Both the position numbers and the translations under genes were made by a program. Shown in pieces: positions 14,985 to 43,875 of a stretch of 64,000 nt of DNA. How positions within the stretch are numbered: position 1 is the first letter of the stretch; each line of letters begins with the position of its first letter. The notes under the pieces were generated by a model. It was not told the origin of the DNA. It saw nothing but the letters and a program-made list of their open reading frames with translations, and did not search any database. This DNA is from a virus (Duplodnaviria > Heunggongvirae > Uroviricota > Caudoviricetes). The DNA is taken from IMG/VR virus record IMGVR_UViG_2851938318_000001; one strand, given 5' to 3'.

Positions 14985-15182
14985 AGATCCCTCTAAAACA
15001 CACAGAGCGCGTCCATGCGCTCTAAAACAACTTGTTTACTGCATCTGCTAACCAACTTGTTTTCTGGTGTGTCTAATTAGGTCTGGGCATGTCTTACTAA
15101 GCCTGCTTCTGTATATATATTTAATAAGTTACTTATTATTTATATATACAGAAGCAGGTCTTTAAATAACGTCCCAGACCGA

Positions 15183-16349: not shown

Positions 16350-17011
16350 GAATGGACCTCATCATAACTACCATTGTGATATTCCACCTTCACGCGTTCT
16401 TTGTAGTGCTTGGTGATCTGCATATCCGGGCGCAGCGCGTTCTTCAGGTCTTCGTGAGTCGTCGCCACCATTACCGTCGCACCAACCTTTCGAGCGGCAC
16501 GCTGGAGGTTAGATGCCACAACCTGAGCGGTTACACGGTCTAGAACAGCACCGAACTCGTCAGCAGCCCACACTTTAGCGCCTGACTCAATCAGTTTGGC
16601 AATCTTGAGACGATATTTCTGACCGTCTGACATTTCAGAAGGCTTGCGAACAAACAGATATGCATCGTTCAGACCAGCCATAGATAACAACCCAAGCGCA
16701 TCGCTGGTCGTTTTGCCCAACTGATCGATGACGTTAACCTCATTATCGAAGGTAAAATCATCGATGGAGGCTACAGACAGCCCTTCATCCTTCATCTGGC
16801 GTTGCAGCTCGCGCAACACAACGGATTTACCTGAACCGGATTGGCCGGTGATGTACACCACATCGCCCTGCTTCACTTCCAGCTCCAGATTGTCGTAAAG
16901 CGTCCACTCTTTTTCGTCCAGGCCAAGCCCGAACGACTCAGCGATTTCCAACGTGCGCGTGGTTTTATTTACGCGTGTCTGAAACGATACGTTGATGATG
17001 TATTTACTCAT
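16346..17011 (-). CDS. ABC-type ATPase (soluble)
   Basis: Walker A GQSGSGKS, signature-like SDGQKYRL, Walker B VWAADEFGA, H-loop TTHEDL. Confidence 0.55.
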   Translation of the reverse strand: MSKYIINVSFQTRVNKTTRTLEIAESFGLGLDEKEWTLYDNLELEVKQGDVVYITGQSGSGKSVVLRELQRQMKDEGLSVASIDDFTFDNEVNVIDQLGKTTSDALGLLSMAGLNDAYLFVRKPSEMSDGQKYRLKIAKLIESGAKVWAADEFGAVLDRVTAQVVASNLQRAARKVGATVMVATTHEDLKNALRPDMQITKHYKERVKVEYHNGSYDEVHS

Positions 17012-17709
17012 GCAGCCATCTCCCCGGAAGAGATCTTCTCCGCATATGCCACAAATGCGTCTACCCCGCTTTCTCCCGTCATTTCTTCCATATGGGCAAG
17101 CAAATCACCAACAACAATGGCAGAGCCAGCAGGGAGCGTTTTAAAGCCCAATACGTCGACAACACGTACTTCTTCCGCTGCAACTTCACGACTGATCTCG
17201 GTGTGTTCATCCTTCTGTCGTTTAGTTTCTTCGCCAAGATCGATAACTAGCGAGTCGGTGTCCATTTCTTCTGTCATACTGCCAACGAGAACATTCAACT
17301 CACGCTCTTCAAAGCCGAAAACCTCGATATCGTCCAGAACAAGCGACTCAAGCTCTTTCTGTAGCTTAATTGCATCGTAATCAATGCTGGCAAGTCGGTT
17401 ATCTTCAAGGCGCTTCGCACGAACCTCGTCATCACTGAGATCATCGCGAACAATAACCGGTACGCGCTCAAGTCCAGCAAAAATTGCAGCCTCACGGCGG
17501 CCGTGGCCAGTAATAATTACGTCGTTCTTATCGACCGTAATTGGCTGGTCAAATCCGCGCTTTTTAATGGCTGCGGCCAGATCTCGGATCTGCTGTTCAT
17601 CATGCTTTTTGGCATTCATCTCATAGGGAATAAGATCTGCCGGGTCGCGATATACGATTTCAAACTTTTTGGTCATTACATACGCTCCTTGTAGTAGTCG
17701 ACCAGCCAC
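17008..17709 (-). CDS. ParB-like nuclease domain protein
   Basis: ParB/Srx motif ITGHGRREAA; 4-bp overlap with downstream ATPase gene. Confidence 0.55.
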   Translation of the reverse strand: MAGRLLQGAYVMTKKFEIVYRDPADLIPYEMNAKKHDEQQIRDLAAAIKKRGFDQPITVDKNDVIITGHGRREAAIFAGLERVPVIVRDDLSDDEVRAKRLEDNRLASIDYDAIKLQKELESLVLDDIEVFGFEERELNVLVGSMTEEMDTDSLVIDLGEETKRQKDEHTEISREVAAEEVRVVDVLGFKTLPAGSAIVVGDLLAHMEEMTGESGVDAFVAYAEKISSGEMAA

Positions 17710-18374
17710 ACCAGAGCCTCACCAGCGTTCTCCATTTCATTACCGGTGTTAATAGCCTGCTCTTTGATGATGTTTTTTATGGTTTCTGCAACACGATCTG
17801 ACGCATCGAAAGTTACTTTGAAGCGCATGGTCTGATGTTCCGCCCCCACACGTTCGGTTTTCTCTCGTTTGTCGGTATCGACAGGCTCATCACTACCACG
17901 AGACAACGCCTCCAGTGCTTCAAGGTCGATTGCCGCCTCTTTTGCTAAAACCATCGAGATTTCGTCGTCATACGGGGCGATTTCAGACAGTTGATAGTCA
18001 AGTTCTGACTGAATTTCTTCAATGAAGCGTTGCAATGCGATTTGGTCGTCTTCACCGTATCGCTCGTTGTCCACCAGTGACATCTGTTTAGCTACGACAT
18101 CGCTAATTTTGCCCACAGAAAGCACCGGAACCGTTGAAATTCCTTGCTCAATAGCAGCACGCCAGCGATGTTCGCCGCCGAGGATTTCAAAAAATCCATC
18201 TTCAAGTTCACGAGCCAAAATTGGCTTAAAAAAGCCCAATTTTTCGATAGAACCTTTCAGTTTTTCAAAATTCTGCGCACCAACCGAATTGGTGTTCCAG
18301 GTATTCGGGCGAAGGTTGGCAACATCAACCTGCAAAATCGTGATTTTTACATCCATTTTATTGCTACAATCCAC
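17676..18374 (-). CDS. ParB-like nuclease domain protein
   Basis: ParB box ILGGEHRWRAA; ORF-track start is GTG at 18374, internal ATG at 18356. Confidence 0.55.
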   Translation of the reverse strand: MDCSNKMDVKITILQVDVANLRPNTWNTNSVGAQNFEKLKGSIEKLGFFKPILARELEDGFFEILGGEHRWRAAIEQGISTVPVLSVGKISDVVAKQMSLVDNERYGEDDQIALQRFIEEIQSELDYQLSEIAPYDDEISMVLAKEAAIDLEALEALSRGSDEPVDTDKREKTERVGAEHQTMRFKVTFDASDRVAETIKNIIKEQAINTGNEMENAGEALVWLVDYYKERM

Positions 18375-20000: not shown

Positions 20001-20279
20001 ATGAGCGAAAAGAAAACAACTTATTGCCAAGTGGCATTGTCTGATAAAGCCAATGAAAAACTTGGAAAATTTCAAATAAAACTCAAAGAGAAAAAAATCA
20101 AGATGTCTAAGGCTGAAGTTATCAATGCCATTCTGGAGACGATGACTATGGCTGAATTTGACAAAGTCACATCTGCCGTTGGGGTTTCCGCTAAGACGCG
20201 TGAGAAAATCATGCGCATCTATGAGAACTCCAATATGACAAAAAAAGATCTAGAGGAAATACTGAGCAGGTTGCCGTAA
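20001..20279 (+). CDS. hypothetical protein
   Basis: 92 aa ORF starting 3 bp after helicase stop. Confidence 0.4.
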   Translation: MSEKKTTYCQVALSDKANEKLGKFQIKLKEKKIKMSKAEVINAILETMTMAEFDKVTSAVGVSAKTREKIMRIYENSNMTKKDLEEILSRLP

Positions 20280-22199: not shown

Positions 22200-22721
22200 A
22201 TGGTTAAAGACATCACCTACGGCATACCGGCTGAAGTCTGGCCGCGAGACTACGAACATGCTGAAAACATACTTATGTTCTGGCGGAAGAACAACATTCC
22301 TGTAAGAGTCACGCTTGAAGACGGTCAGGTGTTTTGCATGTACGTTCAGGGGACAATGCCTTCCCGCAATAAGCTAGATTTATGCCCGCTTCCATATGAT
22401 AAAGAAAATCGTATAAGACTCCCACTTGAGCGCATTAGCACAATTGAATCAGGTGTAATCGATGGCATTGCTCGCGAGTTCAAAGGTAGGCTAACAATAC
22501 ATCCAGACTATGTTGACAATCAGCCATCACGCCGTGACTTTTTTGCGATATGTCGCAAGGCTTATCAAAACGACCAATCTATAAGGGTCTACATGGCAGA
22601 CGGTCGTGAAATAGAAGGGGTGTCAAGAGGCGTTGATGCTTGCCAGGTCACTCTTAAGTTAGAAGACGGCAGAAAAATACTTGTTTTCTTCGATTGGGTT
22701 GAACGAATCCTTCCTTTTTAA
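22200..22721 (+). CDS. hypothetical protein
   Basis: 173 aa ORF followed by hairpin terminator at 22725-22760. Confidence 0.45.
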   Translation: MVKDITYGIPAEVWPRDYEHAENILMFWRKNNIPVRVTLEDGQVFCMYVQGTMPSRNKLDLCPLPYDKENRIRLPLERISTIESGVIDGIAREFKGRLTIHPDYVDNQPSRRDFFAICRKAYQNDQSIRVYMADGREIEGVSRGVDACQVTLKLEDGRKILVFFDWVERILPF

Positions 22722-24250: not shown

Positions 24251-24619
24251 GTCTTTAACTCACTCCAACAACATAAAAATAAGCACCAAAATAACGCCAT
24301 AGACGCGCTTTTATATCCTTGCCAGTACATACCCATTACTTAACACATTAACGCGCTTAAAACGCGTTATAGCGCATAGTTAATCATTGGCTTTTAGTCT
24401 TGCTATGTAATCCGCGTTTAATTGTCGGCGCGGATCGGCATTTTGTGTTGTTCTGTATCCGCTCGCGTATTATGTGCGCGTGATTTTTCACATAATCACA
24501 CCACTTAATCACGTATGTGATTACGCTACGAAAGAAATCTGGATGTCTCAGGCGACGAAAGTCATCATAATTTTCCCCGCTCGCCTGTCCGACAACCGCT
24601 GGTTGGATTCCACCAGCTT

Positions 24620-24770
24620 CCCGATGTTTTTTCTACACAAAGGCGAATGCAGCCGTTTCCCGAAAAAATCCTGGCCGTTCCCCGTCGGCTCATGAATACG
24701 TTCCTCGCCGTTTCTGAAAATTTCCCTGCGGCAGCTGGTGGCTATAGAGAAAGGGCCGTTTCTGGCCCTC
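24620..24770. repeat. degenerate iteron-like array (CCGTTTCC / GCCGTTTCTG units)
   Basis: at least 4 units: cagccgtttcccgaaaa, ggccgttccccgtcgg, cgccgtttctgaaaa, ggccgtttctggcc. Confidence 0.55.
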
Positions 24771-24777
24771 TTCTCAG

Positions 24778-25260
24778 TTACACGCCATCAAGGATGTGGA
24801 TGCGGTTGCTTGCGTATACATTCAGCATAAAGTTAGCGCAAAACAGTTTCCATGTGTCAACGCCAGCGGTATACGTAATATTTTTGCATTTAATTGCATT
24901 GTTGGCGATCCGCATCCCCTGCGATACTGCTTCATCGTCGGAAAATTTGAACGACGATTGAGTTTTAATCCAGACAGAAATCTGCGTAGCGAACTCAATC
25001 AGCTTGGACTGGCAGAATCGCCCGGAGCGCACCGGAAAGACGAACGTTCCGAATCCAGAATTTACCACATACGCTTTCTCAAATACCCGCGAGTAACGAC
25101 GATTACCAATGATGTCACGTGCAATAATGCATTTTTCTTGTGCTGACAGTTCTACCGTCTCATTGTCGCGCCATGCACCAAGTACTCGTTTTTCAATGTC
25201 AGAGAACGTTACAGCGATATTGCCATGTGCGGGTGCGTTTACAGTAGCGATAAAATTCAT
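24778..25260 (-). CDS. hypothetical early protein
   Basis: 160 aa ORF preceded by conserved promoter/operator unit. Confidence 0.5.
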   Translation of the reverse strand: MNFIATVNAPAHGNIAVTFSDIEKRVLGAWRDNETVELSAQEKCIIARDIIGNRRYSRVFEKAYVVNSGFGTFVFPVRSGRFCQSKLIEFATQISVWIKTQSSFKFSDDEAVSQGMRIANNAIKCKNITYTAGVDTWKLFCANFMLNVYASNRIHILDGV

Positions 25261-25277
25261 GATTAATTCCTTATCGT

Positions 25278-25314
25278 AAATAACAAATTGTTTTCTTGTT
25301 GTTGTTAATTATCG
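25278..25314 (-). promoter_or_regulatory. conserved early promoter/operator unit
   Basis: plus-strand aaataacaaattgttttcttgttgttgttaattatcg (rc: CGATAAT...AAGAAAACAAtTTGTT). Confidence 0.55.
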
Positions 25315-25433
25315 CTGTACGAATAAGGCGTCAAAGTTGAAAACTACGGTAGCCGGACGGGAACAGGTGGGTTTGTCGGTTGCCTGGAGGTAAGAGGTTG
25401 GTGTTTTTAGCCTGCGGGAAACAAGATGGTCAT

Positions 25434-25460
25434 TTAAGGCCACCAGCATTGGTGGCCTTA
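25434..25460 (-). terminator. rho-independent terminator
   Basis: aaggccaccagcattggtggcctt. Confidence 0.55.
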
Positions 25461-25464
25461 TTCT

Positions 25465-25752
25465 TTAGTGGAGTAGAGCGATGTCGATGGTATCCCCTGA
25501 ATCATCCACACGGATCATCAGCATGGCGAAGGCGTTTAGTGGATAACTGGCGTGCCATTCAGGGAAGCGGTCATCTCGCATGAAGTCAGCAATGTCGTAA
25601 ACGCAGCCCTCAAAGTGGAAGAATCGCGTGCTTACCTGCTCGTCATAATCCACATGATCCATTTCTTGCTGTTCTGTTTCCGGCAAGTCCAGCCATGATT
25701 CGAGGAATACATTTTGTGCTTTGGTGGTAATGGTGAAATCAGTCATGAGCAT
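25465..25752 (-). CDS. hypothetical early protein
   Basis: 95 aa ORF with conserved promoter unit upstream and hairpin terminator downstream. Confidence 0.5.
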   Translation of the reverse strand: MLMTDFTITTKAQNVFLESWLDLPETEQQEMDHVDYDEQVSTRFFHFEGCVYDIADFMRDDRFPEWHASYPLNAFAMLMIRVDDSGDTIDIALLH

Positions 25753-25765
25753 ATCCTAACTGCGT

Positions 25766-25798
25766 AAACATGTTGTTTTCTTGTTGGTGTAATTATCG
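25766..25798 (-). promoter_or_regulatory. conserved early promoter/operator unit
   Basis: aaacatgttgttttcttgttggtgtaattatcg. Confidence 0.55.
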
Positions 25799-25905
25799 CA
25801 GTGTAGATAAGGCATAAAAGAAGTTAATACAGGCTGAATACGCAAGAAAGGTTCTGGAAGTTGATAGCTAGGTTTCAAACTAACCTTCGGTTATTAAAAG
25901 TCATT

Positions 25906-25935
25906 TAAGGCCACCAGCGTTAACTGGTGGCCTAT
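25906..25935 (-). terminator. rho-independent terminator
   Basis: aaggccaccagcgttaactggtggcct. Confidence 0.55.
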
Positions 25936-25938
25936 ATC

Positions 25939-26238
25939 TCATTGCTTTCGATGTGCTGCAACGAACTCTTTCAACGTTTCTAGCGCATGATAAAGACCGA
26001 CGATATTTGAGCCGTAGTCGATGCAAACAGGGGAAAGTGATGTCTTCCCGTCGTGCGATGAATATGCCGATGTGGTAGTTGCAGGGTAATCGTGGCGATA
26101 GCAAACCGCAGTTTTTGGGTGTCGCAGATACGCTATCCCTCTTTCAAGATCATAAATTGCGCGTCGCAGGTCATGCTCCTGCGCTCTGGTCAATTTTGCC
26201 ATCGTAATACTCTCACTTAATGCGGCAAAGCCAGCCAT
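25939..26238 (-). CDS. hypothetical early protein (true start probably near 26202)
   Basis: 99 aa ORF; its first codons lie inside a duplicated segment. Confidence 0.4.
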   Translation of the reverse strand: MAGFAALSESITMAKLTRAQEHDLRRAIYDLERGIAYLRHPKTAVCYRHDYPATTTSAYSSHDGKTSLSPVCIDYGSNIVGLYHALETLKEFVAAHRKQ

Positions 26239-26477
26239 GATTCGAGGAATACATTTTGTGCTTTTGGGGTAATGGTGAAATCAGTCATCGTGCCCCCCAT
26301 CTCCTGCAACTGTGCAACGGTGATATCTGGACACAGCCCGTCGATCCACACCCACACGTCAATGATGCTGTCACCGGCTTCAAAATGGTGAAATGCGCGC
26401 TCAAGCTGCTGATTGTTATCCACAGGCTCATTTGCTAGCTGCGCCCAGATTTGCTGGACTTGAGTAATAGTTTTCAT
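26217..26477 (-). CDS. hypothetical early protein with C-terminus derived from a duplicated segment
   Basis: C-terminal MTDFTITPKAQNVFLESWLALPH duplicates the N-terminus of the 25465..25752 product. Confidence 0.45.
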   Translation of the reverse strand: MKTITQVQQIWAQLANEPVDNNQQLERAFHHFEAGDSIIDVWVWIDGLCPDITVAQLQEMGGTMTDFTITPKAQNVFLESWLALPH

Positions 26478-26486
26478 CTGCTTTCC

Positions 26487-26513
26487 TCTTGTTTTCTTGT
26501 TGTTGTAATTATC
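26487..26513 (-). promoter_or_regulatory. conserved early promoter/operator unit (left palindrome arm degenerate)
   Basis: cttgttttcttgttgttgtaattatcg. Confidence 0.5.
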
Positions 26514-26556
26514 GAAGTTTAGATAAGGCAGAAAATAAATTGTTATCGGGCATAAG

Positions 26557-26583
26557 AAAATGGCGCGGTTTACGCGCCATTCA
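26557..26583 (-). terminator. rho-independent terminator
   Basis: aaaa-tggcgcggtttacgcgcca. Confidence 0.6.
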
Positions 26584-26590
26584 AAGAGGA

Positions 26591-26986
26591 TTAAGCGAAT
26601 ACGCTTTCAGGGATTAAGGTGTCGGCAGGAATGCCAGAGGTAATGCGCAGGCCGTACTGACCAATCCAGGTGGTGCTGGTGTTCAGGCTGGAGGTGAATA
26701 CGGAATTAACCATACTCATCATGGTTTCAAACACCTCTTCATCAACCTGGCGGAAGTAGTTCTCGATTTTCAGCAGCAGTGGGTCAGTTGCATCGAGAAT
26801 GGACTGGTATTGAGTCGCGTACTCGCCGCCGGAGGCATCACCTTTACGCACGATCGTACTGGCCTGGACTTCGGCACCAGTTTCGGTGTTGTACGTAACA
26901 ACGGTGATTTTTGCCACATTCTTACCTTCGGCAGTTTCAGAGGCATAGTAAACATCAACTGTCAGTTTTTCGCGTTTAACGGTCAT
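26591..26986 (-). CDS. hypothetical early protein
   Basis: 131 aa ORF; terminator hairpin 26557-26583 downstream. Confidence 0.5.
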   Translation of the reverse strand: MTVKREKLTVDVYYASETAEGKNVAKITVVTYNTETGAEVQASTIVRKGDASGGEYATQYQSILDATDPLLLKIENYFRQVDEEVFETMMSMVNSVFTSSLNTSTTWIGQYGLRITSGIPADTLIPESVFA

Positions 26987-27112
26987 TTCACTCTCCGTAG
27001 TGTATTGGTTATTTTTCTATTTTATAGTCGTAGGTATGTACTTACAATACAAAAAAGCCCCGTAAGGATGGCGGGGCTGTCGTACTGTCGACTAATTACC
27101 ACTTGCACATTA

Positions 27113-27454
27113 TCAGGCTATTGCCATCACTGATGCTCTCTGAATTTCTTGCTGGGCCACGCGGTTAACTTCCATCAAAGCCAGTTCGAGCTGATGTTCC
27201 GGCCACATTCTTTGAAATGCCACCCAGCCTTTTCCACGCTGGCGGCGAACATTCATTACATAACGAGTAAAGGTGTTTTTATCGAAAGACACCGCGGTTT
27301 CACGGAACAGACGAATAGAGGTTCCATTGGCAACGATGTCCAGCAAAGTTAATTGAGCAACCAGTGCAGGCTTCTCTTTTCTCTTCTGGTCTTTGTCCAG
27401 ACCAAGAACCAATGATTTTTTCATCACAACTCCGTAAACAACTTGTTTTCTCAA
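27113..27454 (-). CDS. hypothetical early protein (likely start 27424, MKKSLVLG...)
   Basis: ORF-track start lies inside the promoter unit; internal Met has RBS. Confidence 0.45.
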   Translation of the reverse strand: MRKQVVYGVVMKKSLVLGLDKDQKRKEKPALVAQLTLLDIVANGTSIRLFRETAVSFDKNTFTRYVMNVRRQRGKGWVAFQRMWPEHQLELALMEVNRVAQQEIQRASVMAIA

Positions 27455-27469
27455 TGGCGTAAATAATAC
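27435..27469 (-). promoter_or_regulatory. conserved early promoter/operator unit
   Basis: aaacaacttgttttctcaatggcgtaaataatacc. Confidence 0.5.
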
Positions 27470-27577
27470 CAGTAAGAAAACGGCTACAAAGCATATTGAT
27501 CAGGTGCATGAGCGATATGCAGGTTCTTCCCTGCGGCTACAGATTAAGTTAAGCCAGCAATGCTGGCTTAGATTGGT

Positions 27578-27928
27578 TTACGCGAATACCTCAAGAAACT
27601 CCTGAACGTCCCAATGCTGGACGAGGTGAAGATAGACCTTAGAAATCACGTCATTCTCGCTATCGCATGTGAAGTAGTACTTCTGGCTGCGGTTGTATGT
27701 GTCCACACAAAATTCGCTCATATCCATAAAGTCAGCATCTTCACCCAGGTCGCAAATCATCAAAGCAGGTGCGTCATCACGAGTCATCAGCTCAAGCACC
27801 CACCGCGAATTGATCAGAGTGGAAGACCAACCTTCTAACTCATAAAACTGATCAAACTCTTTTTGAGTTAATTTCTTGATTTGGTTGATGTCGATATGTG
27901 CAAACATAAAGCAATCCTTAAACAACAT
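27578..27928 (-). CDS. hypothetical early protein
   Basis: 116 aa acidic ORF directly downstream of promoter unit. Confidence 0.5.
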   Translation of the reverse strand: MLFKDCFMFAHIDINQIKKLTQKEFDQFYELEGWSSTLINSRWVLELMTRDDAPALMICDLGEDADFMDMSEFCVDTYNRSQKYYFTCDSENDVISKVYLHLVQHWDVQEFLEVFA

Positions 27929-27952
27929 GTTTTCTTGTTGGTGTTATTATCG
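27920..27952 (-). promoter_or_regulatory. conserved early promoter/operator unit
   Basis: aaacaacatgttttcttgttggtgttattatcg. Confidence 0.55.
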
Positions 27953-28279
27953 TAATAACGCACAGGCGAAAAAGGATTTTATTCCGGTGAATGTGGTTTT
28001 GGCAGTGAGTTTTCAGGTTCAGTACCGAGTACACTTTTTACATTATTCTGATTTAGTGGCCGAAGGTGGCTGGTGGACAGAATAATCCTCTCCCCGAAAA
28101 CCTACTGAAATCGATTGTGACCCGCTGACTGTCTGGCACAATTACGCTGTAGCTGGGCATTCAGAGGGAATCCAGCGGTAAGCAAGTCCGCCTGCACGTG
28201 AGCGCCTCTCTTCTTCCCGCACATTGCAGGTGGGTAGCCGCAACTCTCCCTCTCGCTATACCGGTACGCCGCCGTTCCT

Positions 28280-28410
28280 GAACCGGCATTGAGCCTTTTC
28301 CCGAAATCCACACAGGCAACTCGACCGTTTCCCTGAAAACCTCCAGCCGTTCCCAAAGGCAACCCAGCCGTTTCTGTAGCGGGATGCAGCCTTTCCCCTG
28401 TATGGACCGA
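28280..28410. repeat. degenerate iteron-like array (CCGTTTCC units), second copy
   Basis: about 6 units: cgccgttcctgaacc, agccttttcccgaaa, cgaccgtttccctgaaaa, cagccgttcccaaagg, cagccgtttctgtagc, cagcctttcccctgta. Confidence 0.55.
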
Positions 28411-28559
28411 AGGCTGACCGTAGGGGTGTTACGGGGGATAAAATCAGGAGTTGAATAAATACGAAAAAGGAGGCGACCCCCCTCCTTCCCTCCCCACTTA
28501 TACATACCTGGCTTCTTCGCTATACATGTTGTGTTTTCTTCGTGTTTTATCTGTCTCAA

Positions 28560-29280
28560 CCTCTCTATAGGCGTTAATGCTCACACCTTCCAGAACGTTC
28601 TATACGGCGACTAATTCTGTTGGTGAATTGGGTGTGTTGTTCTCTCTGTCGGTGTAAATGGTTTCGTTAGTTTTGCGGTGGTTCTTCTGTGGGATGTTCT
28701 CGTCGTTTTGGTGATTGTTCTTCTCCGTGTATGGAGTAAAGGCAGGTGGGCGATTCCTTTCGTTATTGTGTTTGAGTTGTTTGTCTGGAGTGTGTGAAGG
28801 GCTTTTGTAGTTATTCGTGTATTGGGTAATGGCGTTTCCCGTGATTGTTATGTTTCGTGTCTTTTGGGATTGAGAGAATCCTTGCGGTTACAGGCTTCGT
28901 TGGGGTTTCAGTGATTCTGGTGTTTCTTCGCTGTTTGGGTAATGGCGTGTCGTGGGTATCGCGCGTATGGAAGTTTCGAATTGCCTGTGAAAGTTAGGTT
29001 GGTTGTCCGGTAGCCTGCCATAAAGAGGTTGGTTGTTTTTGGAATGGCATATGTGTTATTTGGTTGTTTTGTTATACCTGAAAATAAGTTGTTTATATGG
29101 TTGTGTAACGCAACGGGAGCGATTTTGAGCGTGTGTTTTTGTTGGTAGTGTGTTTGGTCGTCTGTGGTGAAAATTGGACGCTGTGGCGCTGTCTGCTGCG
29201 TAGAATTACGGGTATAAGCAGTGATGTGTGAAAACGTCAATTTTTTAGACCAAATCGGGTGAAAGCGTTGATGTTTCGTT
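28560..29280. other. ORF-free region with extreme GT (plus) / CA (minus) strand skew
   Basis: about 0.7 kb almost devoid of C and A on the plus strand; only low-complexity ORFs; promoter unit at 29290-29326 points into it. Confidence 0.5.
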
Positions 29281-29289
29281 GATCTGTTA

Positions 29290-29326
29290 TTCAGTTGTTT
29301 TCTTATTGGTATAAACAACTATAACC
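29290..29326 (-). promoter_or_regulatory. conserved early promoter/operator unit (drives GT-skew region)
   Basis: ttcagttgttttcttattggtataaacaactataacc. Confidence 0.45.
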
Positions 29327-29437
29327 TATTGATATTTAAGGATGTGATTGCAGGTATAGAATGGGGGTAGTGGCGATCAACGGATTCTTATAGAAAAGAA
29401 TCAAATTGTGACCGCCATTATCAATGAGTTGCAACCG

Positions 29438-30007
29438 TTAGTTGTTCAGATAAACATTTGGAACACGGACGTAGAAGTTCCTGTCGCCGGTAAGTTCCAG
29501 AGTAATGTTAATGTCATTACCATTGTCTAGTGTAGCCGTTGCTCTATAGAACTTATCCGTCACCTTGTCCTCTATTGTCACCTTCATACATTTTGGTGCA
29601 GTCGAACCGTTATTCTCTTTCAGAATAGTTGTCACGAGAGGGCAGGCTGCTTCTTCAAGAGCAACCTCGTCCTTGTGTGGGATGCCGATGAAGATAACCC
29701 AAGCCAGCGACGCAACGATTATGATAAATGGCACTCTGCTGCCTTTTGTAATAGTCGCGCGCTTCCAGAGATAGACAGGCAGGAGGAATACCCCCCATAG
29801 AATTGAAGGTGGTTCACAGCCAGACTCCGATAGAGCCATTCTGTCAGCTACTAACAAACCGATGGTAGTTACACCCCCAATTATAATAGCGTAATTGGTA
29901 TACTCTTCCGGCGATACTCCAAAGAAGAAAGGCATGAACGCTAGAATCCACGCATAAATGTTATTCAGAGGTTTTGTTTGTTGGTTCTGGGTTTCCATCA
30001 CATCCAT
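29438..30007 (-). CDS. integral membrane protein
   Basis: 189 aa with about 4 hydrophobic helices (e.g. IYAWILAFMPFFFGV, IIIGGVTTIGLLVA). Confidence 0.5.
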   Translation of the reverse strand: MDVMETQNQQTKPLNNIYAWILAFMPFFFGVSPEEYTNYAIIIGGVTTIGLLVADRMALSESGCEPPSILWGVFLLPVYLWKRATITKGSRVPFIIIVASLAWVIFIGIPHKDEVALEEAACPLVTTILKENNGSTAPKCMKVTIEDKVTDKFYRATATLDNGNDINITLELTGDRNFYVRVPNVYLNN

Positions 30008-30160
30008 TCCATCACATAAAAATCGCGTTTATATATTATCAATTTTCTCACTTGTATAACCTAAATACGCATCCGTTTATCAATCCACCTTCCACAAACA
30101 TCAGCTTTAGCTATGAAAAATAACAATCTCAAAGTGAAAACCATTATCATAGGATAACGA

Positions 30161-30346
30161 TTAGATGAGATGGTCTAATTCATCATCTATCATTGCTTTA
30201 ACACTTGAGTCATTAACCCCGTATTGATTTATGAACCGTTTCAGCTCCGGTGAAAACTGAAGGTAGATATCGTGAGCGTTTTTCACTGTAGGTTCAACGC
30301 CACGCATTTCAAGCGCCTTTAGTAGATATGAGTCTTCTTTAAGCAT
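30161..30346 (-). CDS. hypothetical small protein
   Basis: 61 aa ORF co-directional with neighbours. Confidence 0.3.
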   Translation of the reverse strand: MLKEDSYLLKALEMRGVEPTVKNAHDIYLQFSPELKRFINQYGVNDSSVKAMIDDELDHLI

Positions 30347-30382
30347 AAATTCTCCGTTGTCTAGTATGAAGCGATTGCCGGA

Positions 30383-30691
30383 TTACCATTGCCAGCACTC
30401 TAGCCCTTCAACGACCGGTGCACCACAATCAAAATGTACAGAGTCAAAGCCTACATCAAGTACTTTCTGAATGTTCGCAATCGCGCCCTCGGATATACCA
30501 TATCGACGCAACTCATCTTTCCAGTCATCGTCCTGTAACCCAGCGTGGACAATGCAACCGTACTCAATTTGTGAAACCCAATCCAGCTCATTGCTTGCGA
30601 TCATGAATCGGCGAGCATCTTCCTCTGATGTATGAGATGAGCTGATCAATGCCACCTGGTAGGCTTGGGTAATGTTCAACATTTCAACCAC
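30383..30691 (-). CDS. hypothetical early protein
   Basis: 102 aa ORF directly downstream of promoter unit at 30695-30727. Confidence 0.45.
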   Translation of the reverse strand: MVEMLNITQAYQVALISSSHTSEEDARRFMIASNELDWVSQIEYGCIVHAGLQDDDWKDELRRYGISEGAIANIQKVLDVGFDSVHFDCGAPVVEGLECWQW

Positions 30692-30694
30692 TCC

Positions 30695-30765
30695 AAAACA
30701 AGTTGTTTTCTTATGTGGTTTATTATCTCCATCAACAAAAGGCAGAAAACAAATTGTTTTAGGTA
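30695..30765 (-). promoter_or_regulatory. conserved early promoter/operator unit with upstream element
   Basis: aaacaagttgttttcttatgtggtttattatc ... aaaaggcagaaaacaaattgtt. Confidence 0.55.
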
Positions 30766-30796
30766 CTGTGTAAATCAGAAGGGATTGTGTCTATAT

Positions 30797-30823
30797 GAAA
30801 ATGCCCGGCGTGTTGCCGGGCAT
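30797..30823 (-). terminator. metG rho-independent terminator
   Basis: aatgcccggcgtgttgccgggcatt hairpin with U-run in minus-strand transcript. Confidence 0.7.
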
Positions 30824-30843
30824 TGCGAAGAGAGGTTGTTTAA

Positions 30844-32877
30844 TTACTTAACCTGGTGGCCAGGTTTAGCACCAGCATCCGGGCTTAACAGGAAGATATC
30901 TTTCCCGCCGGGGCCAGCAGCCATCACCATGCCTTCAGAGATACCGAAGCGCATTTTACGTGGTGCCAGGTTAGCCACCATAATGGTGTGACGACCAATC
31001 AGTGCCTGTGGATCTGGATAAGCGGAACGGATGCCTGAGAAGACATTACGCTTTTCACCACCGAGATCCAGCGTCAGGCGAAGCAGTTTGTCAGAACCTT
31101 CTACAAACTCTGCGTTTTCAATCAGCGCCACGCGCAGGTCAACTTTGGCGAAGTCGTCAAAGGTGATAGTTTCCTGAATCGGGTCGTCAGCCAGTGGGCC
31201 AGTTACCGGTGCGGCTGTGGCTTTCACTTCTTCTTTGGATGCTTCCACCAGTGCTTCAACCTGCTTCATATCGATGCGGTTATACAGTGCCTTGAACGGA
31301 TTCACTTTATGGCCCAGCAGCGGTTGCTGGATACCATCCCAGGTCAGTTCTGTATTCAGGAATGCTTCTGCACGTTCAGTCAGTTTCGGCAGTACCGGCT
31401 TCAGGTACGTCATCAGCACGCGGAACAGGTTAATGCCCATAGAGCAAATCGCCTGCAGATCGGCATCGCGTCCTTCCTGCTTCGCCACCACCCACGGAGC
31501 CTGTTCATCGACATAGCGGTTAGCCAGGTCAGCCAATGCCATGATTTCACGGATAGCTTTACCAAATTCGCGGCTTTCCCACGCTTCACCAATCACTTCA
31601 GCGGCATCAGTGAAGGTTTTGTACAACTGCGGGTCAGCCAATTCGCTTGCCAGCACGCCGTCAAAACGCTTGTTGATAAAGCCCGCATTACGAGAGGCCA
31701 GGTTAACCACTTTGTTCACGATATCGGCATTCACGCGCTGAACGAAATCCTCCAGGTTGAGATCGATATCATCAATGCGCGAAGAGAGTTTCGCAGTGTA
31801 GTAGTAACGCAGGCTGTCGGCGTCAAAATGATTCAGCCAGGTGCTGGCTTTAATAAAGGTGCCGCGAGACTTGGACATCTTCGCGCCGTTCACCGTCACA
31901 TAGCCGTGAACAAACAGGTTGGTCGGCTTGCGGAAGTTGCTGCCTTCCAGCATGGCAGGCCAGAACAGGCTGTGGAAGTAAACAATATCTTTACCGATGA
32001 AGTGGTACAGCTCGGCGGTGGAGTCTTTCTTCCAGTATTCATCGAAGCTGGAGGTGTCGCCGCGTTTGTCGCACAGATTCTTGAAGGAACCCATGTAGCC
32101 AATCGGCGCGTCCAGCCAGACGTAGAAATATTTGCCCGGTGCGTTCGGAATTTCAAAACCGAAGTACGGCGCATCGCGGGAGATATCCCACTGTTGCAGA
32201 CCAGATTCAAACCACTCCTGCATTTTGTTTGCCACCTGCTCCTGCAACGCACCGCTGCGGGTCCATGCCTGCAACATTTCGCTGAAAGAAGGCAGATCAA
32301 AGAAGAAGTGTTCGGAATCACGCATTACCGGCGTAGCACCAGAAACTACCGATTTCGGCTCGATCAGTTCAGTAGGGCTGTATGTCGCGCCGCAGACTTC
32401 ACAGTTATCGCCGTATTGATCCGGCGCTTTACATTTCGGGCATGTGCCTTTCACAAAACGGTCCGGCAGGAACATGCCTTTTTCCGGGTCGTACAGCTGA
32501 GAGATGGTGCGGTTTTTAATAAAACCGTTCTCTTTCAGGCGAGTATAGATAAGCTCGGACAACTGACGGTTCTCTTCGCTGTGCGTCGAGTGATAGTTGT
32601 CATAGCTGATGTTAAAGCCTGCAAAATCAGTCTGGTGTTCCTGACTCATTTCGCCAATCATCTGTTCCGGTGTGATACCAAGCTGCTGTGCTTTCAGCAT
32701 GATCGGTGTGCCGTGGGCATCGTCGGCACAGATGAAATTAACCTCGTGGCCGCGCATTCGCTGGTAACGAACCCAGACATCAGCCTGGATGTGCTCCAGC
32801 ATATGGCCGAGGTGGATTGAGCCGTTAGCGTACGGCAGCGCGCACGTCACCAGAATTTTCTTCGCGACTTGGGTCAT
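30844..32877 (-). CDS. metG: methionyl-tRNA synthetase (E. coli chromosomal type)
   Basis: protein from [31 protein letters not shown]... with KMSKS motif, recognised as E. coli MetRS; ORF-track start 33006 is upstream extension. Confidence 0.95.
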
Positions 32878-33034
32878 AGTAGGCATTACTTCTTTGTAGT
32901 GAAAAGGGGCTTGATAGTAACAAAATGGCCTTATGTCTGCCATGTGATAACAGCATTTCTCATAAATGATTAAATGCCGTAGCTGGAGTACACTACAAGG
33001 CGACAATTGCGCAAATTAAAATAAAGGAGACGGG

Positions 33035-34135
33035 ATGAGCGAGTCCAAATCGCCGGATGCCCTGAGAGCAATGGTAGCCGGTACGCTGGCTAATTTTCAG
33101 CACCCAACCCTGAAACACAATCTGACTACGCTTAAAGCGTTACACCATGTTGCGTTGATGGATGACACACTGCATGTCGAACTAATCATGCCTTTCGTGT
33201 GGAATAAGCCTTTTGAAGACCTGAAAGAGCAATGTAGTGGTGATCTGCTCCGTATCACTGGCGCAAAGGCTATTGACTGGAAGCTGTCGTACAACATTGC
33301 CACGCTTAAGCGCGTCAAAAACCAACCAGGCATTAATGGCGTGAAGAACATTATCGCCGTCAGCTCAGGCAAGGGCGGCGTTGGTAAATCCTCCACGGCG
33401 GTAAACCTGGCACTGGCGTTGGCTGCTGAAGGTGCGAAAGTTGGTATTTTGGATGCCGATATCTACGGGCCATCAATTCCAACCATGCTTGGCGCGGAAA
33501 ACCAACGTCCAACCTCACCGGACGGTACTCACATGGCACCGATTATGTCTCATGGACTGGCAACCAATTCAATTGGTTATCTGGTAACTGACGACAATGC
33601 GATGGTGTGGCGTGGTCCGATGGCGAGCAAGGCGTTAATGCAGATGTTGCAGGAAACTCTATGGCCTGATCTGGACTATCTCGTTCTCGATATGCCGCCG
33701 GGTACTGGTGATATTCAGCTGACGCTGGCGCAGAACATTCCTGTAACTGGTGCTGTTGTGGTAACTACGCCGCAAGATATCGCGCTGATCGATGCGAAGA
33801 AAGGCATTGTGATGTTCGAAAAAGTCGAAGTGCCGGTACTGGGTATCGTCGAAAACATGAGTGTGCATATTTGCAGTAACTGCGGTCATCACGAGCCAAT
33901 TTTTGGCACCGGTGGCGCACAGAAGCTGGCCGAGAAATACAACACGCAGTTGTTAGGCCAAATGCCACTTCATATCTCTCTTCGTGAAGATCTGGATAAC
34001 GGAACACCAACCGTTATTAGTCGTCCAGATAGCGAATTTACGGCTATTTATCGTGACCTCGCAGATCGCGTTGCTGCCCAAATGTATTGGCAAGGTGAAG
34101 TAATACCTGGCGAAATCGCATTCCGCGCAGTGTGA
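33035..34135 (+). CDS. apbC: Fe-S cluster carrier ATPase ApbC/Mrp (E. coli chromosomal type)
   Basis: P-loop AVSSGKGGVGKSS and CxxC (CSNCGH); divergent from metG as in the E. coli chromosome. Confidence 0.93.
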   Translation: MSESKSPDALRAMVAGTLANFQHPTLKHNLTTLKALHHVALMDDTLHVELIMPFVWNKPFEDLKEQCSGDLLRITGAKAIDWKLSYNIATLKRVKNQPGINGVKNIIAVSSGKGGVGKSSTAVNLALALAAEGAKVGILDADIYGPSIPTMLGAENQRPTSPDGTHMAPIMSHGLATNSIGYLVTDDNAMVWRGPMASKALMQMLQETLWPDLDYLVLDMPPGTGDIQLTLAQNIPVTGAVVVTTPQDIALIDAKKGIVMFEKVEVPVLGIVENMSVHICSNCGHHEPIFGTGGAQKLAEKYNTQLLGQMPLHISLREDLDNGTPTVISRPDSEFTAIYRDLADRVAAQMYWQGEVIPGEIAFRAV

Positions 34136-34172: not shown

Positions 34173-34562
34173 CTACATCACAGGACAATCATCAAACTCG
34201 CCACTTCTTGCGTCGTTGATAATGTGAGTGATCACACCAAACACGGCATTGCTGCCCGTGCATCCATCATCATCCTTTGGCAATGCTTCCTTCTTACCAG
34301 TTCTTAAATCCTCCAGATGCTGACGTGGATACTTCCGGTATCTTTTTACGCGATATTCCCCATCCAGAGCACATACAAGAAGAGATCCATCAACAGGAGT
34401 GAGTGAGGAATCGACCACCAGCAATGCACCCTGCAATATTCCCTCACGATGATGGCTGTCTGCCGCCCTCATGAAGTAGGTCGCTGAAGGATGTCTAATT
34501 ATCTGCTGATCAAGAGAAATACGGCTCTCAGCATAATCCGCCGCAGGAGAAGGGAAGCCCAT
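34173..34562 (-). CDS. UmuD'-like protein (HumD-like, no UmuC partner in window)
   Basis: starts GFPSPAADY...HPSATYF (UmuD' core); begins at the position of the UmuD cleavage product. Confidence 0.7.
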   Translation of the reverse strand: MGFPSPAADYAESRISLDQQIIRHPSATYFMRAADSHHREGILQGALLVVDSSLTPVDGSLLVCALDGEYRVKRYRKYPRQHLEDLRTGKKEALPKDDDGCTGSNAVFGVITHIINDARSGEFDDCPVM

Positions 34563-37505: not shown

Positions 37506-38010
37506 TACTGTTTATGATGCTGTCAGTACAGGGAGTAGAAAGCTGGGCATCTCCAGCTATTTTCATGACTTCGACATTCGCATATCGAATACCGAGGTGT
37601 ATCAGACCTGCTATACCTGACTTAAGTCGAACATTTTCCATAAACAGATCCTTTTCCCGCTGTTTAACGGTCTCCAGCTCAACACGCAGTTTCTCAAGCG
37701 TTAGGGCCATCTCTACGTTCTCCTGCTCAAGACGTCGGATGTGTTGCTGTCTTTTATCCAGTTCGTCCAGCAGTGCAATCACATCGGGATCACTATCATC
37801 AACTACTGTTACGCGTGATTTTTCATAATGTTCGTCTGCAAAAGTACGCCCTATCTTAAAATATCCGTCATCACTCTCACCGGAACAGGCATAAACAACA
37901 TGTGCTCCAGATATGCGCTGTATTGACATTTCCTCGCCACAAACAGAGCATTTAGGCGCTGGTTTTGGTGAATAACGTTCACGTAACGTCAGGTAGTAAA
38001 TCTCATTCAC
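37444..38010 (-). CDS. coiled-coil protein (Ea22-like?)
   Basis: N-terminal Cys pairs plus central coiled coil (LDELDKRQQHIRRLEQENVEMALTLEKLRVELETVKQREKDL). Confidence 0.35.
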   Translation of the reverse strand: MNEIYYLTLRERYSPKPAPKCSVCGEEMSIQRISGAHVVYACSGESDDGYFKIGRTFADEHYEKSRVTVVDDSDPDVIALLDELDKRQQHIRRLEQENVEMALTLEKLRVELETVKQREKDLFMENVRLKSGIAGLIHLGIRYANVEVMKIAGDAQLSTPCTDSIINSIASGVFTKEGQHYENSRSSR

Positions 38011-38462
38011 TGTTTATTTCCTGTACGAAGCTCAGCGGCAAAAGCTACTGCGTGATCATGATGTTCAAGTGTGTATGCGCACTCAGCAAACATCTCCACG
38101 CCCTGCGCACGTACTTCAGCCAGAAAAGCATCGGTGGCTGGAGTCTCCGTTAATTCGCTAACCCAATTATCTCCGTGTTCCTCGGCACACATCGCATCGA
38201 ATGCTCGCTCAGATTCTTTCAGGGCTGCATTCTCCGCCGCTAATGCGTCTCTCTGCGCCCGCAACTTCTCAATTTCAGCAGCCATGTAGTAACCAACCAT
38301 AGCGAAGACGGCAAAAGAGTTGTCTGCCTCATCAGGCGACACTGAGGCCATTAGCAGGCCATCGTAAAAATCGTGACTCCCATTGGTGATCGCCACCGCA
38401 TAGGAGTCGTGGTTCTCGCGCTTGTGAATGAGAACTACGGGATTTTCGATTTTGTTACTCAT
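38007..38462 (-). CDS. hypothetical protein with coiled-coil segment
   Basis: 151 aa ORF; partial promoter-unit match upstream (38495-38540). Confidence 0.4.
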   Translation of the reverse strand: MSNKIENPVVLIHKRENHDSYAVAITNGSHDFYDGLLMASVSPDEADNSFAVFAMVGYYMAAEIEKLRAQRDALAAENAALKESERAFDAMCAEEHGDNWVSELTETPATDAFLAEVRAQGVEMFAECAYTLEHHDHAVAFAAELRTGNKQ

Positions 38463-38600
38463 GTGTTTTTCTCTTCTTTGCTGTTACATAAGCACTACCA
38501 AGTGCTGGTTTATTTTCACAAATAAGAAAAGGTAGAAAACAATTTATTTAAGGCCATAAGTTATGGCCTTTATTTATTCATGCAGAAGGATTTGTAGCGC

Positions 38601-39746: not shown

Positions 39747-41432
39747 TCATTTAACGCGTTTGAAAACGTATACGCTGACTGTGATCCCGGTATCTTCAAA
39801 CTCGTTGGTAAACGACTTCCCTCTGGCATAAACGTAATTATCCATCGTCATCCAGTCCAGTATTGGCGCAGTGCCCGGCAATACTGCTACAAGACGCCCT
39901 CCGACTTTCAGATGCCCCAGCGCAGCAAGCGTGTGTTCTCTATGACGACCAAGCGAGTACGGCGGGTTCATAACGATTTTGTCGAACTGATAACCTGCGT
40001 TGTCCTCAGACCACTTTATGAAGTCGCAGCAAATCGTGTTCGTATACCCTTTTCCACGCAGGATATCAGCGAAGAGAGGTGCGATTTCTATGCAAGTAAC
40101 ATCTTCCAGATCGGCGTTAATATAGGCCAGAAGATCCCCACGTCCGGCTTGAGGCTCCAACAGCTTCTCACCAGGCTTCAATTCAGTGGCTCTGGCAACG
40201 TACTCAGCAATCAAGCGTGGGGTAGGGTAGAACTGGTGTGATTTTGTATCCGGTATTAAACCGGTAGCCACAATCGTATTTAGCGTATGGCCGATGTCAT
40301 ACGGGAACTGCCAGTGCTTTTTCTCCTGCACGCCGCCAATGAAGCTCAGTGTGCGCTCAAGCTCTTCCACCTGCGACTTCTGGAGAGCTGAATCAGAGAA
40401 GTACCATACGCCTTTGTCTTTGCTTAATCGCCCGTCACGAAGCGCAGTGCGAACCGGCACGGAGATCGTCTTCTGGATTAACCCGAACTGCTTTGGTGCC
40501 CGTGTTTTTGGCGCGGTGCGACATGGCGCGGGGATTGCAGCAGGCATACTGTAAGCCAGCACCTCATTCAACTTCCAGGCCACGTCAGGATGTATTTCAA
40601 AGTGAACGTTGCCGTTCTTGAACATCTTCACGCGCATTAGATTTCCATCGACGTTCATCCAGTCACCGGTCTGGCAGTCGTTTGCCCGATACGCAGCTGA
40701 TAGCACCTCAGCAGTGCGGTTGATGGTAATAAATTCTTTGTGCGCGAAGAAATGAAGCAAGACACGCAGATCGTCGATATAGTCCTCTTTGCGATAGTTC
40801 ACACTAACGCTGTCCCGCCAGAAATCAGAAATGCAGTCAGCGATTATCAGACGTTCGCTGAAACCGTTTGTCTTATTTGTCTTGTGCGCAGGACTCAGCG
40901 CCTTAAACAAGCCATACACGCGCTCAGAGAGATATTTGTGCCTGTCATTCAGCAAATTAAGCATCGTGGGTATGACCGTTTCTGCTTTGAACTCCGGTAC
41001 ACCAACGAACTCTTTAACCTTCATCTGGTAGCCGGTTCTGTCAGTTTTGATGACTTCCTGTTTGCCCTCTATAAACTGCTCGCGCCACTCATCTCGACGG
41101 GAAGCAGGCATGATCAGCAAAACGTTAGTCATGTCCGTGACCTTCCTCCAGTACTCGGCCCAAATATTCTGTTTCACCCATTCCAGATCGACTTTATCCA
41201 ACCAACCTCGATTTAAACGCGAGCGATCTTCATCTGGTCGATGGTTTAGTCTCAGCAGGCGATTAATCATGTTGTGGCGTTCGTCGCCATAAACGAAGTC
41301 GTGTACCTGATACATGAAGGCGATCTCTTTCTCGCACTCGGCCACAATTTCGTGGATGACGTTCATTTCCTGCCGATAGTCGATAGCAGTGTTTGAGTTG
41401 GCATCGTCGATGATGGAAAGGGCTGTATTCAT
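39747..41432 (-). CDS. DNA N6-adenine methyltransferase with large N-terminal domain
   Basis: motif I LEPQAGRGDLL followed by motif IV NPPYS near C-terminus. Confidence 0.6.
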   Translation of the reverse strand: MNTALSIIDDANSNTAIDYRQEMNVIHEIVAECEKEIAFMYQVHDFVYGDERHNMINRLLRLNHRPDEDRSRLNRGWLDKVDLEWVKQNIWAEYWRKVTDMTNVLLIMPASRRDEWREQFIEGKQEVIKTDRTGYQMKVKEFVGVPEFKAETVIPTMLNLLNDRHKYLSERVYGLFKALSPAHKTNKTNGFSERLIIADCISDFWRDSVSVNYRKEDYIDDLRVLLHFFAHKEFITINRTAEVLSAAYRANDCQTGDWMNVDGNLMRVKMFKNGNVHFEIHPDVAWKLNEVLAYSMPAAIPAPCRTAPKTRAPKQFGLIQKTISVPVRTALRDGRLSKDKGVWYFSDSALQKSQVEELERTLSFIGGVQEKKHWQFPYDIGHTLNTIVATGLIPDTKSHQFYPTPRLIAEYVARATELKPGEKLLEPQAGRGDLLAYINADLEDVTCIEIAPLFADILRGKGYTNTICCDFIKWSEDNAGYQFDKIVMNPPYSLGRHREHTLAALGHLKVGGRLVAVLPGTAPILDWMTMDNYVYARGKSFTNEFEDTGITVSVYVFKRVK

Positions 41433-41535
41433 AATTGCACCATTAAGAAGTGATTTGTTTAATGGTGCAATTATTTCAAAAATGAAAAGGTACTAAATAG
41501 AAATAAACAGGCAATCCTTCAAATAAAGGCATTGG

Positions 41536-43828: not shown

Positions 43829-43875
43829 ATGAATTGCTTACGAAAAGACGGTCAATGCATATGCACTAACAACCG

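Follow-up and report, generated by a model that had tools for sequence, protein, structure and literature searches.

The nearest described counterparts of the repeated unit reported here, which we analysed in a 64,000-nt stretch of viral DNA (hereafter the window; IMG/VR record IMGVR_UViG_2851938318_000001), belong to phage P1 and plasmid RK2. Like P1, in which C1 has about 20 scattered operators, the element is a plasmid prophage, and its lytic and accessory operons resemble those of P1 in that each has one asymmetric operator-like site at its own promoter. Further parallels with P1 are the occurrence of single ('monovalent') and paired, incompletely palindromic ('bivalent') operators, as given in the P1 record, and a regulon that reaches across the genome and includes control of late functions. 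RK2 offers a 13-bp operator of the same 6-1-6 palindromic build (TTTAGCSGCTAAA), recognised by KorB and repeated in about a dozen promoter regions of replication, partition and transfer genes. The centre of some KorB sites is near -39, and the -10 is covered by certain KorA sites. In mycobacteriophage L5, gp71 uses stoperators, many short asymmetric intergenic sites that stand in one orientation to transcription and down-regulate lytic genes of the prophage.

The window is part of an SSU5-type phage-plasmid. Its region 25000-31000 is 96.5% identical to Escherichia phage Cyrano (OV696614) over 74% of the length and is also matched by other E. coli phage-plasmids of this type, those of Klebsiella being more distant. 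According to the Cyrano annotation and our own scans, the window encodes a terminase, head proteins, ParB-like proteins, uvsW, metG, nrdAB and many small open reading frames (ORFs) of no assigned function, mostly on the minus strand. SSU5-type phage-plasmids are very common, including pHCM2 (S. Typhi), pMT1 (Y. pestis), Cyrano/pLF82 and many Klebsiella and Enterobacter plasmids; the backbone is found in 711 plasmid records from Klebsiella, Escherichia, Enterobacter, Salmonella, Citrobacter and Yersinia, and the type is named in the literature among phage-plasmids that carry resistance genes. In the literature searched we found no description of the motif or of any regulon of this family, whose lysis-lysogeny circuit is essentially uncharacterised. 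The unit is a concrete handle on it, providing a 21-bp bait for the regulator, a list of controlled transcription units, corrected starts for several small genes and a two-site architecture. In kind, our analysis classes the set of units as an ordinary promoter-operator regulon with its own sequence and two-site geometry, as in P1 (C1) or RK2 (KorA/KorB). We propose, with a probability of roughly one half, that the units are sigma-70 promoters of the extended -10 type, held shut through operators at which a single repressor encoded by the family binds double-stranded DNA.

In each unit, of about 40-70 bp, a -10 box like that of a promoter comes first, and the near-invariant AGAAAACAA and a short palindrome come after it. 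Ten strong units and a weaker one before terS are present in the window, all in one orientation. The palindrome AAACAANTTGTTT, allowing at most one mismatch, matches the window 13 times against 0.45 expected, a number reached by none of 100 shuffles. A 37-bp weight matrix covering the -10 region through the palindrome, for which the best score in 20 shuffles was 11.3 bits, returned ten sites at 32-52 bits and the terS site (15065) at 17 bits. Taking as anchor the first A of AGAAAACAA on the minus strand, the strong units lie at 25296, 25781, 26497, 27451, 27935, 29303, 30711, 43093, 43822 and 55366. All window units are intergenic and on the minus strand, the strand of the next gene; the motif ends 14-34 nt 5' of the start codon, and the anchor is 20-54 nt from it. 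The original prediction of at least ten repeats, one of them before nrdB, is thereby borne out, since every listed copy is present and the scan scores far above shuffles. The two palindrome cores that it placed upstream of the terminase operon were also recovered, before terS at 15025-15037 and 15050-15062. Its description of the leader as a perfect 6-1-6 palindrome was too strict: the palindrome is repeated, but it is perfect in only four of the ten units, has one mismatch in four others, and has lost its second arm at 26497, where a ribosome-binding site (RBS) stands in its place, and at 29303.

To describe the anatomy across the family, 116 non-redundant units differing by more than 10% were kept from 330 hits. 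AGAAAACAA is near-invariant among them, and this single arm, not the whole palindrome, is the most conserved part; the second arm reads TTGTTTA(AGG), and TTGTTT is matched at five or more of its six positions in 93 units. The -10 hexamer has a fixed offset (anchor-16 to anchor-11) and is GATAAT in 41 of the 116 units, the others having mostly xATAAT or TATTAT; T6 is conserved to at least 80% and A2 to 50-80%. The earlier view of GATAAT as an extended -10 is therefore right about the fixed position of the hexamer, but TG at -15/-14, one base before it, occurs in only two window units (25781 and 27451) and in 50 units family-wide (43%, against about 6% expected). The terS, helicase, nrdB and 29303 units lack a hexamer of this type with A2 and T6 at the fixed place. 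With a start about 7 nt after the -10, AGAAAACAA would cover +5 to +13, and the palindrome would be centred at +14. Repressors are known to act from such a position; lac O1, for instance, is at +11.

An inverted copy of the site lies upstream in 27 of the 116 units (23%), and its centre has the same offset in 26 of these 27, 51 bp from the downstream centre and near -38 from the predicted start, over the would-be -35 position. On the opposite strand it is asymmetric in the same way as the site itself (GGYAGAAAACAAnTTGTTTAAGG). Window examples are found at 30747-30759, 26533-26545 and 38537-38549. The conserved upstream element noted earlier does accompany several units, but it is this operator-like inverted copy at a fixed 51 bp and not a separate motif. 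Units whose downstream second arm is degenerate, having given way to the RBS, have the inverted copy more often (10/23 versus 17/93, indicative only, as the units are phylogenetically related), as expected of cooperating sites. The spacing is fixed to the -10 and not to the start codon. Recognition of double-stranded DNA is the best explanation for the inverted copies, their fixed spacing and the asymmetry that they preserve. A divergent promoter or a small antisense RNA arising from the inverted copy was rejected, as that strand has no in-register -10 and no consistent downstream ORF or terminator.

A structured RNA element can be excluded, since the leaders are unstructured as RNA (-0.6 to -2.9 kcal/mol, z-scores -0.15 to +0.65), pairing between the arms is kept at only 4 of 64 variant positions, and an Rfam scan of the window found no family that matches the unit, its sole hit being an unrelated ALIL element. 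An RNA hairpin or long stem of the RNase III type between upstream and downstream copies was likewise discarded: the leaders fold no better than shuffles, the bases at the centres of the two copies are complementary in 13 of 26 units where we estimate about 10 by chance, and only those 4 of 64 variant positions pair.

A single-stranded RNA site is possible, and the window encodes a candidate reader. The plus-strand gene 22200-22721 specifies a full-length FljA-family protein of 173 aa with two predicted tandem Sm/Hfq-like domains, on which the AlphaFold2 (AF2) model is confident; its residues 4-170 match positions 1-170 of the Pfam profile PF03614 (E = 5e-81, 270.9 bits, cut-off 24). The gene belongs to the core, with 830 plasmid records (341 Klebsiella, 62 Yersinia), and it is expressed in lysogens. 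Klebsiella and Yersinia hosts are non-motile, and retention of the gene there suggests a target inside the element. Salmonella FljA represses fliC after transcription, acting on its mRNA (PMC2652032; bioRxiv 10.1101/2025.10.27.684867), which makes leader binding by the FljA-like protein an attractive minority hypothesis. The protein would bind single-stranded AGAAAACAA and UUGUUUA in 5' leaders, block translation and destabilise about 15 messages, or it would read the same letters on the exposed non-template strand of the early transcription complex; we consider either form unlikely. As in the Salmonella FljA/fliC pair, a PF03614 protein is encoded in the window and the motif stands in 5' leaders beside the RBS, which it often abuts (TTGTTTAAGGAG); the leaders are also unstructured, as Sm proteins prefer. 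The phage-plasmid clade differs from the chromosome-encoded phase 1 flagellin repressor homologue (P0084, Atlantibacter hermannii), to which it is only about 40% identical. Silencing of the host's flagellin may be all that the protein does. The phage-plasmid leaders share CAAGTTGT and (GA)TAAGGA(AAA) with the fliC leader of Salmonella and Citrobacter, but 64-76 of 1000 shuffles (6-8%) do equally well, no signal is seen for E. coli fliC, and the resemblance of the motif to the fliC leader falls short of significance. Two properties of the unit argue against a sense-RNA element, for which inverted copies at a fixed 51 bp, with their asymmetry on the non-coding strand, make no sense: these copies themselves, and a spacing locked to the -10 while the distance from AGAAAACAA to the start codon varies between 20 and 54 nt. 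If the hypothesis were true, a protein family with no known role beyond silencing one flagellin message would have become the master post-transcriptional switch of a widespread and clinically important family of phage-plasmids, and the retention of its gene in elements of non-motile Klebsiella and Y. pestis would be explained.

The unit is conserved far beyond the window, in line with the comparison with related phages proposed for it. Cyrano has 15 copies, all in gene direction, before parA, helicase, cobT, nrdB, tciA and accessory cassettes; the unit also occurs in SSU5, in the first 50 kb of Klebsiella phage pJN2-26, in Y. pestis pMT and in diverged IMG/VR relatives of only 67-69% nucleotide identity. 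Among 120 viral contigs with the 17-base pattern, 103 are SSU5-like and 17 are unrelated with single chance hits, and every multi-copy locus belongs to an SSU5 relative. Selection was assessed by ungapped comparison of eight orthologous trios (E. coli window, SSU5, pJN2-26). Identity was 0.36-0.5 in the flanks, 0.7-0.8 from anchor-40 to anchor-26, 0.82 in the -10 hexamer, 0.98 in AGAAA and 0.83-0.90 in the remainder of the site. By these alignments the unit is under purifying selection across genera. Paralogous units within one genome share the core (0.70) and not the flanks (0.33) and hence are not recent copies.

Constancy of the motif across elements of E. coli, Salmonella, Klebsiella and Yersinia, while the candidate proteins of the element diverge to 50-75% identity, could also point to a host protein common to Enterobacterales, either nucleoid-associated or a global regulator. 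Such binding would account for an identical motif in elements of five genera, and CGATAATT may resemble the high-affinity motif reported for H-NS. We nevertheless regard a host protein as very unlikely: the multi-copy loci are all confined to SSU5 relatives among the 120 viral contigs, and to our knowledge the site matches no E. coli regulator consensus.

Between 25 and 31 kb the window consists of single-gene cassettes in a row, every one equipped with a unit of its own and with a hairpin 3' of the gene, and the relation to Cyrano is plastic here: entire cassettes are replaced at 25934-26520 and 29427-30382, one breakpoint (26521) abutting a unit and the others falling at a hairpin or gene end. 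This recalls the PeSL (promoter-early stem-loop) repeats of T4-type phages, in which a promoter element of about 50-70 bp and hairpins flank small ORFs in a plastic region and cassettes vary between close relatives. The unit might accordingly have no dedicated regulator and be a portable promoter with an A-rich, unstructured leader for newly acquired small genes, serving as a homology patch for shuffling. We judge this quite improbable. Unlike the T4-type repeat, the unit also precedes core genes and the late operon (nrdB, helicase, parA, terS) and includes a palindromic site, of which a second copy stands at a constant distance; the exact 51-bp inverted copy, the palindromic second arm and an isolated copy between convergent genes (SSU5 87640) would be left unexplained, and paralogous units share only the core. 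Since the unit-led genes are silent in the lysogen, such a cassette is also not simply 'on'.

This silence is seen in the transcriptome of LF82 (Cyrano), for which gene-level normalised counts are tabulated (S1 table of PMC9928086). In the lysogen the first genes behind units reach 5-25 counts, the prophage median being 9.8, with the exception of parA (50); for comparison, RepA has 133, CYRAN_117 114 and the putative repressor CYRAN_45 96 (PMC9928086). Promoters with a good -10, often TG-extended, that are silent in the plasmid state fit repression.

The same promoters might need positive control, either by an element-encoded activator bound near -38 or by a sigma-appropriation or late-activator protein, and be silent as long as no activator is produced; the conserved blocks would then be what this factor recognises. 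The units have no canonical -35; a consensus scan of 24500-31500 calls none of them, and the closest approaches to a -35 are TTGTTT, 19 bp from the -10, and GTTTTC, 17 bp from it. Class II activators bind at about the position of the upstream site, whose centre is near -38, and a block at about -35 to -23 (TTTTCTGCCTT) is conserved in orthologues even without the full upstream palindrome. The unit also precedes the late operon, the family carries several T4-like replication genes, and P1 late promoters, with a -10 plus a -22 element by annotation of the P1 record, provide a precedent. On balance this is a rather remote prospect: the site that all units share and that is conserved best lies 3' of the start, as is typical of repressors and not of activators, TG-extended -10 promoters are normally independent of activators, no Lpa homologue was found in the sequences searched by tblastn, and 40 window proteins scanned against Pfam gave no MotA/AsiA-type match. 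We know of no consensus that fits the unit among those of sigma-28, sigma-54, T4 late and T7-like promoters and of a list of E. coli regulators.

The repression that we favour would work as follows. Each module, specific to SSU5-type phage-plasmids, would be a sigma-70 promoter that relies on a GATAAT-like -10, often TGn-extended, in the absence of a genuine -35. The asymmetric site of 21 bp, which is in part palindromic (AGAAAACAAnTTGTTTA(A/C)GG), would lie at +5 to +25 of the predicted transcript with its centre near +14, and about one quarter of the units have the second, inverted site exactly 51 bp upstream, its centre being near -38. One sequence-specific protein from the conserved core of the element would occupy these sites on double-stranded DNA, bound either at +14 only or at positions that flank the site of RNA polymerase. 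About 12 promoters of the window, and at least 15 per genome, would thus be kept shut during life as a plasmid prophage, the controlled genes being accessory cassettes, nrdB, helicase, cobT, parA and the terS late operon. One shared factor is a reasonable assumption because of the anatomy of promoter plus site in the transcribed region, the purifying selection and the silent genes in the lysogen, and the units most likely define one co-regulated gene set. In this respect the original prediction of a regulon under a single factor stands, but the set is not an 'early' one: it includes the terminase/structural operon behind terS, parA, the replicative helicase and other replication genes, cobT and accessory cassettes.

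Several observations weigh against repression of this kind. A consensus scan finds a complete sigma-70 promoter at none of the units, and the terS, helicase, nrdB and 29303 units, which have no A at position 2 of the -10 or no in-register -10, may not be promoters at all. The start 7 nt after the -10 is a prediction from sequence. Conservation is far higher in the AGAAAACAA arm than in the other arm; an operator for a symmetric dimer would not usually show this, and the difference could stem from a function in the RNA. Silence in the lysogen would also be compatible with activator-dependent promoters. Lastly, no DNA-binding protein could be tied to the site. The annotated Cyrano repressor CYRAN_45 was rejected, since it is absent from SSU5 and its own control region has GGTAAG/CTTACC repeats and no copy of the motif. 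Two ParB_N proteins are encoded at 17008-18374, both at background in the lysogen.

The search for a factor left two core genes that are opposite in strand to the units and lie within an island at 18.4-24.7 kb, parts of which lysogens express. The first is the FljA-like gene described above. The second (20001-20279, plus strand) encodes a 92-aa protein with a ribbon-helix-helix (RHH)-like N-terminus, as judged by sequence pattern; it is found in 787 plasmid records, and its counterpart in the Cyrano lysogen, CYRAN_117, is highly expressed. It has no Pfam match. Among the points to be set against repression by this protein, its AF2 model is unreliable (predicted local distance difference test, pLDDT, 57), and its likely DNA-facing residues vary among orthologues though the motif is constant. 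Autoregulation of the putative RHH gene through AAGAAAACAACTTATTG at its start (20009-20025) was discarded, as this sequence is unconserved in the SSU5 and Klebsiella orthologues. A UmuD-like S24 protein (34173-34562) was considered as a CI-type repressor and rejected; it has no DNA-binding domain and belongs to a UmuD-like PHROG family.

The regulon also departs from its described counterparts. Unlike P1, no homologue of C1, Coi or Lpa was found by tblastn in the window, Cyrano, SSU5 or the first 50 kb of pJN2-26 (best E = 0.86), so that the P1 C1/Lpa system was set aside. The P1 operator (ATTGCTCTAATGTATTG) is unrelated, as seen when its 17-bp form ATTGCTCTAATAAATTT is placed against the site here, AGAAAACAAnTTGTTTAAGG (P1 Olpa was compared), and the paired sites of P1 overlap each other, while those described here are 51 bp apart and flank the promoter. 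ParB-family proteins (ParB_N) are encoded here as in RK2, their link to the motif being a candidate one only; in contrast to RK2, the sites here have an unrelated sequence, the main one lies 3' of the start, and both ParB-like genes are at lysogen background. L5 sites are mostly elongation blocks away from promoters in a phage of another host phylum, whereas the site here is locked to the -10.

The individual units, all on the minus strand, vary around this plan. Before gene 24778-25260, the unit at 25281-25315 (33.8 bits) has GATAAT at 25313-25308, AGAAAACAA at 25296-25288 and the palindrome AAACAATTTGTTA at 25293-25281, with orthologous units at SSU5 94522 and in the Klebsiella relative (Kp) at 29079. 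The highest score (51.8 bits) belongs to 25766-25800 before gene 25465-25752, with the extended -10 TGcGATAAT (hexamer 25797-25792), AGAAAACAA at 25781-25773 and the palindrome at 25778-25766. The unit at 26482-26545 before gene 26217-26477 (37.7 bits) combines the inverted copy TAACAATTTATTT (26545-26533) with GATAAT at 26513-26508 and AGAAAACAA at 26497-26489; it is the RBS GAGG that stands where its second arm would be. A second extended -10, TGgTATTAT, is found in 27436-27470 before gene 27113-27424 (42.6 bits), followed by AGAAAACAA at 27451-27443 and a perfect palindrome at 27448-27436. The next unit, 27920-27954 (47.9 bits), precedes gene 27578-27907 and has GATAAT at 27951-27946, the variant AGAAAACAT at 27935-27927 and the palindrome at 27932-27920. 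For this gene the ATG at 27907, with AAGGA before it, fits better as start than 27928. Likewise, the annotated starts of Cyrano CYRAN_103, 105 and 110 lie inside or upstream of the unit, and starts 20-35 nt after AGAAAACAA, with RBS-like sequence, fit better. The cassettes at 25.4 and 25.9 kb finish with near-identical hairpins (TTTAAGGCCACCAG...TGGTGGCC), with the T run on the opposite strand.

At 29288-29322 (38.8 bits), a unit with AGAAAACAA at 29303-29295, a poor -10 and no second arm leads into an ORF-less, C/A-rich stretch; orthologous units lie at SSU5 90530 and Kp 25660. About 750 nt of this minus-strand DNA (28550-29290) are G-poor, with a plus-strand GC skew of +0.4 to +0.48 and an AT skew down to -0.55, and the stretch terminates in a strong terminator-like hairpin at 28488-28463. 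Its start is kept in SSU5 and the Klebsiella relative. The segment 28463-29303 could be a long non-coding RNA or a Rho-loading region. The complete two-site unit is that before gene 30383-30691 (30696-30759, 43.1 bits), in which a perfect inverted copy (30759-30747), GATAAT (30727-30722), AGAAAACAA (30711-30703) and a perfect palindrome (30708-30696) follow one another, the two sites being 51 bp apart from centre to centre.

Farther along the window, the unit at 43078-43112 before gene 42490-43059 (45.8 bits) has CACAAT at the -10 position, AGAAAACAA at 43093-43085 and a perfect palindrome at 43090-43078, and that at 43807-43841 before the TerB/TciA-like gene 43357-43782 (32.3 bits) has a weak -10 (AGCAAT), AGAAAACAA at 43822-43814 and a perfect palindrome at 43819-43807. 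The nrdB gene (54177-55319) is preceded by 55351-55385 (41.7 bits), with AGATAACAA at 55366-55358, the palindrome at 55363-55351 and no in-register GATAAT; this unit lies downstream of a terminator-like hairpin of nrdA and is kept in SSU5 (70216), Kp (7462) and Y. pestis pMT. Two loci are decayed in the window. Before gene 38007-38462 only an upstream-type inverted copy is present (38533-38549, AAATAAATTGTTT plus TCTACC), the downstream AGAAAACAA being lost here and present in the SSU5 orthologue (85650), and before the methylase-like gene 39747-41432 a degenerate unit (41444-41478) scores 8 bits, its orthologues at SSU5 82465 and Klebsiella 19221 being of full strength.

The leader of terS and the late operon (15004-15081, 17.3 bits) contains CCTAAT at 15081-15076, AGAAAACAA at 15065-15057 and palindromes at 15062-15050 and 15037-15025; its counterpart in Klebsiella reaches 31.6 bits. 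The copies of the motif are separated from the ATG at 14984 by a GC-rich hairpin at 15023-15004 (AGAGCGCATGGACGCGCTCT) and then GTGTGTTTT, a T run. By its sequence this hairpin looks like an attenuator, and the late operon may therefore be controlled by antitermination. Just upstream of the unit, at 15080-15180, a 101-bp near-palindrome is formed by two 50-nt arms of 76% complementarity with the core word TATATACAGAAGCAGGC, which has four matches against 0.01 expected; a smaller copy of this inverted repeat is found at 46237-46295. The near-palindrome may be a packaging site, an origin or a bidirectional terminator.

Two further features of the window stand apart from the units. An IS3-family insertion sequence occupies 48626-49839 on the minus strand, where orfA (49513-49839) overlaps orfB (48626-49516), and the Rfam hit mentioned above, the ALIL frameshifting pseudoknot, falls within it at 49442-49558 (121.5 bits). 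At 30844-34135, metG (methionyl-tRNA synthetase, MetRS) is divergent from a gene for an Mrp/ApbC-type ATPase (Pfam ParA/NUBPL, E = 2e-102), which is named 'MinD' in the Cyrano annotation and is expressed in the lysogen; the pair resembles the metG-mrp arrangement of the host chromosome.

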